A stretch of 64,000 bases of DNA from Puniceicoccales bacterium (GCA_031260055.1 JAIRKQ010000006.1:7713-71712); one strand, 5' to 3'; counted from the first letter of the stretch, positions 30,100-54,047 are shown. Notes: a model not told the origin generated them from the letters alone. Numbers and translations are program-made.

Positions 30100-30160
30100 G
30101 AGTACCATCATTTAACTTGTTGTTTGTAAATTCTTATGTACAATGAGAGGCCTTTACTTT

Positions 30161-30610
30161 ATGGAGTATACGGAAGCAGTAGATATAGTTTCTGAGCTTT
30201 TTAGAATAAGCCAATGGGCTAGTAATGAGTATGGCGAAAAGTATGCCATCCTAGACAATGATATTGAGATTCGGATATTTCAGTCGGCCAGGGATAAAAT
30301 GGTAATACAGGGAATGTTCGGGGAACCCATCCAAAACCTATCGGCAGCGAATGCAAGCGAAGTAAAGTTTCGTTATCTTCTTCAGGCCAATTTTATTAGA
30401 ATTATCCAATACGATGATGTTTTATCCATAGATAAACGCACAAATCGATTAACTACGACACGACATATTTCTTTATTTGGAACTTCCATGGAAAAAGTCC
30501 TCGATGTGGTCGAATCTTTTATCAAAAATGTAGACTTTTGGGATATGGCCTTGAAAAGGAAGCAATCGTTTGCTACAGTATCTCCTCTATTGAAATTTTC
30601 TCTAAAATAA
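30161..30610 (+). CDS. Type III secretion chaperone, CesT/YscB-like
   Basis: ~150 aa, acidic, with the LLQANF...LSID motif and a C-terminal amphipathic helix (VESFIKNVDFW). Its stop overlaps the sctC start (TAATG). Confidence 0.7.
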   Translation: MEYTEAVDIVSELFRISQWASNEYGEKYAILDNDIEIRIFQSARDKMVIQGMFGEPIQNLSAANASEVKFRYLLQANFIRIIQYDDVLSIDKRTNRLTTTRHISLFGTSMEKVLDVVESFIKNVDFWDMALKRKQSFATVSPLLKFSLK

Positions 30611-32496
30611 TGGGAATAGTAAAAAAGTTTTTTCAGTTTGCATTGATTTTCGTCTATTGTGCACTCTACGCAGAAGAAAGAGATCCCATTGGCGTCTCGC
30701 CATATGGGGCACTTCCCTTTTCAAAGTCGAGTTATTACCACTTTGCCAAGGACCAAAATTTATCTGCCCTCATTCAAGACTTTTTTTCCATGCAGGGTAT
30801 AACCGTTGTGATCAGTGATAGAATAAATTATACCGTAAATGGCAGGTTCAGTAAAATGGATCCGGCAGAATTTTGGAGTTACATAACCAAGGCCTATGGG
30901 TTGGTTTGGTTCTTCGACGGTAAAATAATGTTTGTCTATACAAATTCCGAGCTGCAAACACAGATTTTCAGGATGGATCCGGATGGAATTGGCACATTGT
31001 CTGTGATTCTATTACGCCTAGGATTTATTGCTTCCGATTTTTCGTTTCGAGCTGTCGGCGAAGCAAATGTTCTAATAGTAACTGCACCTCCTCAGTATAT
31101 TGACGTGATAAACGACATAGCAACCAAGTTTGTCCCAAGTAAGATTTCTGACACCACCATTGTGAAAATCATACCGTTAAAATATGCCTGGGCCTACGAT
31201 ATGACTTTTAACTATGCCAATGGTTCGATTTCCGTCCCCGGTGTCTCAAGTTTATTACAAAGTATTATTACGGGCCAGCAATTATCAGCGGCGTTCTCTC
31301 CTTTCAATGTTAATGTAGGAGCAAATCAGAAGCAAGTAGAATATCAGCAGATGGTAGGGGTGCTCGACGATACCCCTCCATACGCAAAAGACATAAATAA
31401 CAATATCAAGAATATGCAAAAGGATGGGAAAAATTCCGACAAGGGCAAAAATGACAAATCTTCGGGAGACAAATCGTCCAGCGATGGTAACAGCATAGAT
31501 ATTTCAGGAACTTCTTTGCCTGGATTTATAACCTGTGATCAGCGGTTAAATGCGATAATAATTCGCGATAGACGGGAAAATATGCCATTTTACGAAGAAA
31601 TTATATCGAAACTCGATGTACCATGTGAAGTTATAAAAATTGACGTTGCTATCGTAGACGTAAATAAAACCTCTTCCCTTGTTTTTGGGCTTAGTGGCAT
31701 TAGCGCTACCCTTTCCAATGGGAAGCCGATTGGTATTTCGATGTCAAAAACCGACCTCAATGCGACAGCCGTTGCTAACTTGGCCTCAACTGGCTCAATT
31801 GCTGGGAAATTGGGTATAGCAAAAAATGCCGAGATAAGTTATGCTATTGATGCTTTGGAAAAAAGCAGTAATGGGCAGGCAGTTTCTCGACCATCCGTTC
31901 TAACACTCGATAACGTCGCAGCAATTTTAGAGACCGATAAAGTACACTACGCTACAGTATCAGGAACAAATAATTCGAACGCATATACCCAATCTGCAAC
32001 TACCAAGTTACAGGTTGTTCCACATATCATTCCGGGAGATGTTGATGAAAATGGTAAGCGTAAAATGAAGCTATTCGTTGACATATCCGACGGAAGTTTT
32101 GAGGTCAATGAAGAGGGTGACGAAACCTCTACTGTAACCCAACACTCCCTGAATACGCAATCCGTACTGTACGAAGGGCAGAGCTTAGTCATAGGAGGCT
32201 ATGACTCGGAAATAAACCAAAAAAAGGATAATGGAATCCCTGTATTGCAGCATTTTCCACTAATAGGAACTTTGTTCAAGCATACGACTAATAGCAAAGA
32301 AGTCAAAGAACGCATTTACATAATTTCTCCATCCGTCATAGAAATTCGCAGCGATGACCATAAGCACGATAGATTCGTCCAAAATGGGCAGCTCACAGCC
32401 GAAGGAACCCTTGAAGCTGACAATTATCCGTTAACCATCCCATGGCCAAAAGAAAAACGTCCTAAGCCTAAACTATTTAGAACAAGAATCGATTGA
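30610..32496 (+). CDS. sctC: Type III secretion outer-membrane secretin SctC (YscC/HrcC family)
   Basis: Signal peptide; N0 domain YHFAKDQNLSALIQDF...VNGRF...AYGLVWFFDG.IMFVY.NSE; LKYAWAYD; DQRLNAIIIRD; secretin core SRPSVLTLDN..A; IPVLQHFPLIGTLFK. Confidence 0.92.
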   Translation: MGIVKKFFQFALIFVYCALYAEERDPIGVSPYGALPFSKSSYYHFAKDQNLSALIQDFFSMQGITVVISDRINYTVNGRFSKMDPAEFWSYITKAYGLVWFFDGKIMFVYTNSELQTQIFRMDPDGIGTLSVILLRLGFIASDFSFRAVGEANVLIVTAPPQYIDVINDIATKFVPSKISDTTIVKIIPLKYAWAYDMTFNYANGSISVPGVSSLLQSIITGQQLSAAFSPFNVNVGANQKQVEYQQMVGVLDDTPPYAKDINNNIKNMQKDGKNSDKGKNDKSSGDKSSSDGNSIDISGTSLPGFITCDQRLNAIIIRDRRENMPFYEEIISKLDVPCEVIKIDVAIVDVNKTSSLVFGLSGISATLSNGKPIGISMSKTDLNATAVANLASTGSIAGKLGIAKNAEISYAIDALEKSSNGQAVSRPSVLTLDNVAAILETDKVHYATVSGTNNSNAYTQSATTKLQVVPHIIPGDVDENGKRKMKLFVDISDGSFEVNEEGDETSTVTQHSLNTQSVLYEGQSLVIGGYDSEINQKKDNGIPVLQHFPLIGTLFKHTTNSKEVKERIYIISPSVIEIRSDDHKHDRFVQNGQLTAEGTLEADNYPLTIPWPKEKRPKPKLFRTRID

Positions 32497-32551
32497 CGTT
32501 GACGCTGTTTAATTGCTTTTTCTCCATTCCTGCACCTGCATGAACAGACTT

Positions 32552-53485: not shown

Positions 53486-53488
53486 TTC

Positions 53489-53517
53489 TTGCGTAAAGAA
53501 ATAAAAATCCCTATGCT
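53489..53517 (+). promoter_or_regulatory. Putative sigma70 promoter of the orphan T3SS chaperone
   Basis: TTGCGT-17 nt-TATGCT. Confidence 0.4.
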
Positions 53518-53570
53518 TTAAGAAATTTTCCTATTGATCGTTTACAAAACTTAATTATCAAGGTACGAGA

Positions 53571-54047
53571 ATGAGTGCTAGTAGAACAAAAGTTGAAGAC
53601 GCGTTAGCCAATTTGGCATTGCGATTGAAGTTAGAATCACTGAAACTTAATGAAAAAAATGAAACCTATTTGCTTTTTGATCAAAAGTTTCATGTAACGT
53701 GTATCTTTGACACCGATAAGGATGAATTTATATTAACGTCCATTGTCGGAGAACTTGAAAAATTTTCCTTGGAAGCGTATAAGAAAATACTCGGAGATAA
53801 TTTCTTTTGGGCTGGAACGGCAGGAGCTAGGTTGTTTCTTGAGCCTGACGAAGGGGATGGTTCTGATACGATCATATTGAGAGAGATTATACCACTAGCA
53901 ATGTTCGACGAAGAACGTTTGTACGAACGTATGGAAGATTTTGTAAATGCTGTAGAATATTGGTCGACGGAATATCCAAAGTTGCAACAGGGAGGAAAAT
54001 CGCCATCGGCAAATCAATCAGCGGGTGGGTTCATGGTATCTGCCTAG
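53571..54047 (+). CDS. Type III secretion class I chaperone (CesT/SycE/Tir-chaperone family)
   Basis: 158 aa, acidic; L..L...L.L..L.LNE....L.FD, ILGDNFFWAGTAGARL.L, FVNAVEYW. Confidence 0.82.
   Translation: MSASRTKVEDALANLALRLKLESLKLNEKNETYLLFDQKFHVTCIFDTDKDEFILTSIVGELEKFSLEAYKKILGDNFFWAGTAGARLFLEPDEGDGSDTIILREIIPLAMFDEERLYERMEDFVNAVEYWSTEYPKLQQGGKSPSANQSAGGFMVSA

Follow-up and report, generated by a model that had tools for sequence, protein, structure and literature searches.

Secretin, needle and chaperone genes dispersed among housekeeping genes: a probable scattered type III secretion system in a Puniceicoccales lineage

Injectisome genes are as a rule clustered in one island, a feature on which TXSScan and other detection tools depend. 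What do genes of a type III secretion system (T3SS) mean when they stand singly or in pairs between housekeeping genes? The question is raised by a 64,000 nt stretch of DNA from a Puniceicoccales bacterium (GCA_031260055.1, JAIRKQ010000006.1:7713-71712; hereafter the window), in which five T3SS-related genes occupy three places within 30143-54047. The original prediction, made from this DNA alone, had described a chaperone-sctC pair between glyS and recD2, a needle gene with a cdsG-like companion between fabV and cmk, and a cesT gene between sufT and a GNAT gene, and had read them as an old, domesticated and fragmented injectisome. We consider it probable (roughly 0.72) that these genes are parts of a complete and functional injectisome, scattered and vertically inherited in a Puniceicoccales lineage.

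The three loci (chaperone-sctC, sctF with a tetratricopeptide repeat (TPR) gene, and cesT) were recovered at the positions claimed, and their flanks are as named: GlyRS/RecD2, FabV/Cmk and SufT/GNAT. GlyRS, RecD2 and FabV, as well as the nearby HisRS, pass the NCBIfam cut-offs; the Cmk-like, SufT-like and GNAT neighbours have NCBIfam matches below the cut-off. The loci had also been called unlinked, which holds in the sense of separate operons but not as a matter of distance, as all three lie inside 24 kb: sctC and sctF have about 11 genes (15 kb) between them, the TPR gene and cesT five (5.5 kb).

sctC (30610-32496, plus strand) codes for a 628 aa protein with the Pfam domains T3S_SPI-1_N0, Secretin_N and Secretin. 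It scores 337 bits against NCBIfam TIGR02516 (cut-off 238) and falls far short of the models for secretins of type II secretion systems (T2SS) and type IV pili (T4P), with 110 bits against TIGR02517 (GspD), where 351 are needed, and 116 against TIGR02515 (PilQ), where 284 are needed. Among solved structures InvG (6e-35) and MxiD (2.5e-31) are matched best, GspD and PilQ at 1e-18 or weaker, and the best single reference match is YscC of pCD1 (E-value 6.6e-61). These scores identify the product as a true T3SS secretin, SctC, the injectisome's outer-membrane part, and not as GspD or PilQ. It is 22-30% identical to, and about equally distant from, all outside families; the JGI metagenome collection contained no close relatives, the best match being 33% identical.

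The gene directly upstream (30143-30610, plus strand) codes for a 155 aa protein. Its assignment as a T3SS chaperone of class I (YscB/CesT-like) is based on position, on a Pfam CesT match slightly under the cut-off (E-value 3.4e-4) and on an iterated local profile. The iterated hidden Markov model (HMM) places it in a family whose genes immediately precede sctC in some 78 T3SS loci; YscB joins the same family at 9e-16, and a member is kept in every Puniceicoccales/Opitutales locus scanned. The chaperone stop codon overlaps the sctC start codon (TAATG at 30608-30612), an arrangement that points to translational coupling of the two genes.

sctF (47381-47662, plus strand) codes for a 93 aa protein, which taken alone matches Pfam T3SS_needle_F with an E-value of only 0.009. 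An exhaustive HMMER search found 13 representative relatives, and the resulting family alignment has a conserved C-terminus, ...LQAKVQxWGNLxxTATGILRAxGDxLKxTTQNIR; the end of the window protein, ...LKGTAQNVR, lines up with the C-termini of related needle proteins. The best PDB match of the family profile is YscF (2p58_B, 5e-6), followed by PrgI, PscF and MxiH. Of the aligned sequences, 14 with the window protein included, 13 match PF09392 (best E-value 2e-10). A needle profile built from the intact verrucomicrobial clusters described below misses the window protein (E-value 3.7), yet detects YscF, so the window needle is confirmed only via the profile of its own family. Judged by that profile, 47381-47662 encodes the needle filament subunit SctF.

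sctF is followed by a gene for a small TPR protein of 139 aa (47675-48094, plus strand), in the position of YscG/CdsG. Its best NCBIfam match is CdsG (E-value 6e-9, below the cut-off), and phmmer matches it at 1.7e-22 to the TPR gene located between sctF and sctI/J in intact verrucomicrobial clusters. The AlphaFold (AF2) model, with a predicted local distance difference test score (pLDDT) of 90, has seven helices. In a Foldseek search with this model the T3SS class II chaperones IpgC, PcrH and SycD come first (E-value ~1e-4, TM ~0.5), with generic TPR proteins close behind. Alignment of the TPR family to YscG and YscY with hhalign was not significant, and a sequence-profile search of the PDB with this family returned generic TPR proteins only. 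The protein is probably the needle co-chaperone, and binding to SctF is predicted.

The third locus consists of a single gene (53571-54047, plus strand) between the sufT-like and GNAT genes. Its product is a CesT-class T3SS chaperone according to Pfam (CesT, E-value 1.7e-13); the only PDB match is ExsC (0.0034). Its nearest local relatives are chaperone genes located just downstream of sctC in other clusters (L013 and L009; also L123). The GNAT gene that follows, with a likely start at the ATG at 54068 preceded by a GGGGAGGG ribosome-binding site, was considered as a chaperoned effector and rejected, since it codes for an ordinary 199 aa RimJ-like protein with no N-terminal extension.

How these loci relate to a conventional T3SS can be seen from other members of the phylum, which were scanned with profiles built from Yersinia Ysc proteins and 80 environmental SctC loci (JGI metagenome clusters). 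Free-living Opitutaceae and Verrucomicrobiaceae (Horticoccus sp., EW11, UBA1938, UBA7681 and several metagenome-assembled genomes, MAGs) have one block with the order TPR-sctV-chaperone-sctC-sctD-...-TPR-...-sctJ-sctL-sctN-...-sctQ-R-S-T. The gap after sctD is filled by a small gene in the YscE position, a needle gene, a TPR gene and an SctI-like gene, which gives the yscB-C-D-E-F-G-(H)-I-J order of Yersinia. The gene pairs of the window are adjacent in this single operon, and it is in this sense that the system is fragmented, as had been proposed. Since the TPR protein matches its counterpart in the intact clusters, the chaperone belongs to the family upstream of sctC and the relatives of the lone cesT lie near sctC, the chaperone-sctC, sctF-TPR and cesT loci can be considered fragments of a former operon.

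Intermediate states are also present in the phylum. A Chthoniobacter flavus MAG and Terrimicrobiaceae MAGs keep C-J-L-N...Q-R-S together (through T-U in C. flavus), while F-TPR-x-I-D...chaperone-C is still found in Candidatus Xiphinematobacter and its relatives from soil, where the vicinity contains no export genes. In a second Puniceicoccales lineage, with SctC 33-36% identical to that of the window, the chaperone-sctC pair is located about 1 kb downstream of the gene for the F1 ATP synthase alpha subunit (L112, L113, L114, L116, L122, L124, L126, L156). This different housekeeping neighbourhood suggests that the fragments were relocated differently in different lineages. The matches to the SctN profile found beside sctC in this lineage (1e-40 to 1e-45) were rejected as they belong to F1 AtpA, with the PF00306 C-terminal domain. 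Both SctC types occur in one MAG (LBD33_02480 and LBD33_03155).

The relationships among the secretins were examined in a neighbour-joining (NJ) tree of this one protein (577 columns, 200 bootstraps). T3SS secretins are split from T2SS and T4P secretins with 100% bootstrap support and the window protein is placed with the former; a grouping with T2SS or Tad secretins, the outcome that the original prediction had named as contrary to it, did not arise. Puniceicoccales/Opitutales SctC proteins form a clade (97%) that groups with the Chthoniobacterales type (76%) and stands apart from the Ysc-like and Opitutaceae types. As this is a distance tree of a single protein, it gives only a hint of a distinct verrucomicrobial T3SS family. 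One metagenomic relative (MDTC01028027.1, L012 9884-14956; 31% identity) has an sctC stop-to-stop frame of about 1690 codons, which could reflect either a giant fusion of SctC or a faulty assembly.

The closest SctC homologues (80-86% identity) come from many records titled 'MAG: Puniceicoccales bacterium', and ribosomal and other proteins of the window cluster with proteins of the same MAGs. A scan of GTDB, with one genome per species, found 73 loci of this SctC type, all 73 in Verrucomicrobiota (Puniceicoccales, Opitutales, Opitutaceae, Chthoniobacterales, Terrimicrobiaceae and Verrucomicrobiaceae). With the nearest relatives titled Puniceicoccales, an order within the class Opitutia, the proposed assignment to Opitutia stands. 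Isolate names of the Puniceicoccales MAGs, e.g., Nc350, Gsp477, Kf353 and Cd354, resemble termite-species sample codes; judged from the names, an origin in termite guts is probable. The label 'symbiont' is likewise inferred from the MAG isolate names alone.

sctD is absent from the window. In the sister MAG Pcl387_bin12 (L093) it is located 5.6 kb from sctC on the opposite strand, and its product matches the Pfam YscD cytoplasmic domain (1.8e-14). SctD scores 128 bits against TIGR02500 (cut-off 86). A search with the protein of the sister MAG found 40 SctD protein clusters in Puniceicoccales/Opitutales; the SctD identity series parallels the SctC series across the clade, and those that NCBI has annotated are named SctD. 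One of these proteins, P0184 (87% identity), is encoded on a contig from sequencing run SRR14710918. Another contig of the same run encodes exactly three window proteins, Pth (exact-match look-up) and ribosomal protein S6 and SSB (local alignment, 100%). Since one run yields both contigs, the genome of the window very probably carries sctD at a site outside the window. The claim that the other parts of the system lie elsewhere in the genome thus stands for sctD only, on another contig of the same sequencing run.

On the contig of SRR14710918 sctD forms a small locus of its own, nusB - methylase - [124 aa] - sctD - [75 aa] - clpX, with mutS, thyA, folA and lpxK around it; the same mini-locus is present in a lineage at 69% identity. 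The 75 aa gene that follows sctD occupies the YscE position and resembles by eye the genes found there in the intact clusters, phmmer being not significant. The 124 aa gene immediately upstream of sctD is conserved in three Puniceicoccales lineages (L162 9559-9933; L163 9549-9923; L093 4380-4754, minus strand). It has no family match, and its product may be an unrecognised T3SS accessory protein. Within the window, an open reading frame (ORF) of 483 aa (26921-28372), located upstream of glyS, is comparable to SctD in size; it was rejected as such and shows a weak autotransporter beta-domain match.

Conservation of the fragments indicates that they have been in place for a long time. The glyS-chaperone-sctC junction is present in L001, L004 and L089-L109 and is kept down to 49% SctC identity; the fabV-sctF-TPR junction is kept in L164, down to about 61% identity. 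Two sister MAGs have sctC and the TPR gene on one contig, 13-14 locus tags apart, as in the window. In more distant lineages the two genes are on different contigs and fabV-sctF-TPR is still intact. In all Puniceicoccales/Opitutales loci the chaperone-sctC pair stands alone, with no T3SS core genes within 10 kb. In comparisons with sister genomes sctC has a dN/dS of 0.11-0.16 and the chaperone gene one of 0.08-0.20, next to 0.07-0.11 for glyS, and close sisters (80-86% identity) contain no internal stops. These values point to strong purifying selection on both genes, which are probably maintained and not relics. The five T3SS genes have a GC content of 0.37-0.45 and a third-position GC content (GC3) of 0.35-0.40, inside the range of their neighbours. 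The description of the system as old and domesticated is well founded on these junctions, on dN/dS values near that of glyS, on GC and GC3 like those of the neighbours and on the lack of mobile-element genes.

Given the established identities of SctC, SctF, SctD and the CesT protein at 53571-54047, together with the fragmentation relative to intact relatives, the conserved junctions and the purifying selection, the following scenario can be proposed. An ancestral operon, chaperone-sctC-sctD-yscE-like-sctF-TPR-sctI-sctJ-L-N-...-Q-R-S-T, would have been split up by rearrangements, leaving pieces of one to three genes that now stand among housekeeping genes. SctC would form the outer-membrane ring, its N0/N1 domains docking on the inner-membrane ring of SctD. 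The TPR chaperone would keep SctF monomeric in the cytoplasm, possibly with the help of the 75 aa protein from the YscE position, until export of SctF and its polymerisation into the needle. A gatekeeper or effectors would be kept export-ready by the YscB-like and CesT-like chaperones. The ATPase, the export gate and SctJ are predicted to be encoded at further scattered sites.

As the genes no longer share operons, the pieces have to be expressed separately; we expect them to have separate promoters, either constitutive or controlled by a regulator acting in trans. The best candidate is a sigma-70-like match, TTGACA-17-TAGCAT (47325-47353, plus strand; 10/12), located in the 77 nt spacer between fabV and sctF; the best matches upstream of the other two loci reach 9/12. 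The original prediction had credited two of the loci with sigma-70-like promoters of their own. Consensus matches do exist upstream of all three loci, but they are no commoner than in shuffled sequence.

Several observations weigh against a complete and functional system. Neither the window nor the 5.5 kb past its right end nor about 0.8 Mb of Puniceicoccales/Opitutales DNA yielded any of sctJ, L, N, Q, R, S, T, U and V. This negative carries little weight in either direction, because the sample, drawn from the surroundings of sctC, sctD or sctF, comprises some 20 kb per genome and is heavily redundant. In none of the three upstream regions does the count of sigma-70-like matches exceed that of shuffled sequence. 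The TPR protein is indistinguishable from class II translocator chaperones by sequence or fold. NCBI calls the SctC orthologues 'hypothetical protein', though its own model library passes them here, and the host association is inferred from nothing but MAG isolate names.

The first of these observations could also be accommodated by relic genes, i.e., loss of the export apparatus, with the genes for secretin, needle and chaperones left to decay slowly. None of the retrieved Puniceicoccales loci contained core export genes, and genome erosion in symbionts often brings operon fragmentation. Decaying genes, however, would hardly retain dN/dS of 0.08-0.20, near that of glyS, intact ORFs in close sister MAGs and orthologues down to 49% identity. 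The same clades also keep SctD, SctF and the TPR chaperone, and the putative translational coupling of chaperone and sctC is preserved. We therefore regard relic genes as improbable.

A reduced or repurposed secretin-ring-needle module, serving in adhesion or as an outer-membrane conduit for another exporter and devoid of a T3SS export gate, is an unlikely explanation as well. It would agree with the finding so far of outer and periplasmic parts and chaperones only, and the lineage also has secretins of the T4P/T2SS type and a T2SSE ATPase. Class I chaperones and a needle chaperone are nevertheless meaningful only with T3SS export, and we know of no studied injectisome in which SctF export and needle assembly proceed without the T3SS export gate. 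Besides, the sample per genome is far too small to show absence. Survival of the secretin-ring-needle module without an export gate of its own can also be seen as a variant of the scattered injectisome, and as such it is the rarer alternative.

Recent piecemeal horizontal acquisition would require three separate foreign insertions. Each locus is indeed short and situated between housekeeping genes, and a more distant Puniceicoccales lineage (L002) has a hisS-sufT-lptF block that lacks the cesT-GNAT pair. Against this, no integrase or transposase domains were found in any ORF scanned, and the repeat search found no direct or inverted repeats bracketing the loci, which bears out the original observation that integrases, insertion sequences and flanking repeats are lacking. 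GC and GC3 do not differ from those of the neighbours, the same junctions recur in lineages diverged to 49-70% protein identity, and the identity series of SctC and SctD mirror each other across the clade. Acquisition of this kind was already disfavoured and is very unlikely. An assembly or binning artefact, i.e., a chimeric contig, might be suspected since the source is a MAG, but independent assemblies of different samples gave the same arrangement in at least eight MAGs, and it recurs in Logan assemblies; an artefact can be excluded for practical purposes.

The injectisome genes are embedded in a stretch with a G+C content of about 41% and densely packed housekeeping genes. Besides the flanking genes glyS, recD2 and fabV, the window includes RNase P RNA, two tRNAs, murG, a murC-murB fusion, mutL, hisS, lptF/G, bamA, dnaB and rplI-ssb-rpsF-pth; no flagellar genes were seen among its genes. 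In the fusion, a 718 aa ORF (12155-14311), a MurB reductase domain is combined with MurC-like Mur ligase domains; a MurB/MurC fusion enzyme is reported from Verrucomicrobium spinosum (PMC4803751).

Between the first two T3SS loci lies a second secretin gene (40208-42253). Its product matches only PilQ and GspD structures and belongs with the T4P family of Akkermansia Amuc_1098 (311 bits, below the cut-off). It is followed by a gene for a ComM/ChlI-type ATPase (40208-43936 together), and the arrangement is conserved in sister MAGs. This is probably a pilus or DNA-uptake secretin unrelated to the T3SS. At 44076-46048 two tandem FkbM-type methyltransferase paralogues are each preceded by a copy of a 121 nt sequence (83% identical); the GC content of this region, 0.365, is below the window average.

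The 483 aa ORF mentioned above contains collagen-like GEPGTS repeats and extends to 28372. In the region 26908-28372 a perfect 16 nt tandem repeat, GGACATTTGGGGCAAA, in 5.9 copies (26923-27017) is placed between a ribosome-binding site with its ATG (26919) and this ORF. The frame of that ATG stops after 51 codons and the 483 aa ORF is one frame off; loss of one repeat unit would join them, which makes the ORF a candidate slipped-strand phase-variable surface protein. Two further ORFs are large lineage-specific proteins: one of 1154 aa (23305-26769), with no Pfam or NCBIfam match, a GC content of 0.47 against 0.41 for the window and a position about 4 kb upstream of chaperone-sctC, and one of 998 aa, also without matches, just past the right end of the window (L088 1001-3997).

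A T3SS as finely scattered as this would be missed or scored as incomplete by cluster-based detection. Should the export genes be present, the clade shows that a machine of some 20 proteins can keep working in the absence of operons, and its coordination would have to be achieved entirely in trans or through constitutive expression. In that case a graded series would exist within Verrucomicrobiota, with one operon in Opitutaceae, partly split loci in Chthoniobacterales and Xiphinematobacter and, at its end, full scattering, and it would allow direct study of how a complex operon breaks down. A working system would also point to direct manipulation of a eukaryotic host, a gut protist or an insect, by abundant uncultured Puniceicoccales, apparently of termite guts. 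We can only tentatively suggest that this is the most fragmented injectisome so far described, in pieces of one to three genes kept by purifying selection throughout a Puniceicoccales/Opitutales clade that apparently inhabits termite guts.

T3SS are already known in Verrucomicrobia (PMC3459982), and T3SS-dependent pathogenicity of V. spinosum is reported (PMC3681970). Our full-text literature search found no paper linking Puniceicoccales, Opitutales, termite 'Nucleococcus' or Xiphinematobacter with a characterised T3SS. Scattered T3SS loci are known in Chlamydiae and in the intracellular Hamiltonella defensa (PMC3459982), the latter being a proteobacterium, unlike the lineage studied here.

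The window lineage and Chlamydiae both belong to the Planctomycetes-Verrucomicrobia-Chlamydiae superphylum, both have T3SS genes distributed over several chromosomal loci (at least four fragments here: chaperone-C, F-TPR, cesT and x-D-75aa), apparently with vertical inheritance and, in the window lineage, probable host association, and the best NCBIfam match of the TPR protein is CdsG. For Chlamydia, Abby and Rocha suggested that constitutive expression relaxes selection for clustering (PMC3459982), and by analogy the same logic would apply to the Puniceicoccales fragments. However, the chlamydial loci are multi-gene clusters, whereas the fragments described here have one to three genes. CdsC is described as T2SS-like with a large unique N-terminal region (PMC3459982), whereas the window SctC, with its SPI-1 N0 domain, is of the YscC/InvG type and lacks an extension. 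The Chlamydia analogy thus covers genome organisation only.

In local gene order the fragments agree with Yersinia virC (yscB-C-D-E-F-G), with a chaperone gene before sctC, the needle gene before that of a small helical chaperone and a small gene after sctD. The Ysc genes, however, constitute one plasmid-borne block beside the export genes, and the window SctC falls outside the Ysc-like clade of the NJ tree. The intact T3SS of Opitutaceae and Verrucomicrobiaceae belong to the same phylum and consist of the same parts, and their SctD proteins are the best matches to that of the sister MAG, but their genes form a single block, and their SctC proteins are only 22-26% identical and fall into a different clade. 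The nearest SctC clade outside Opitutia is the Chthoniobacterales type (the Chthoniobacter flavus MAG, Terrimicrobiaceae and Candidatus Xiphinematobacter). There the needle, chaperone, SctD and SctC genes share one locus, whereas in the lineage of the window they are split by housekeeping genes.

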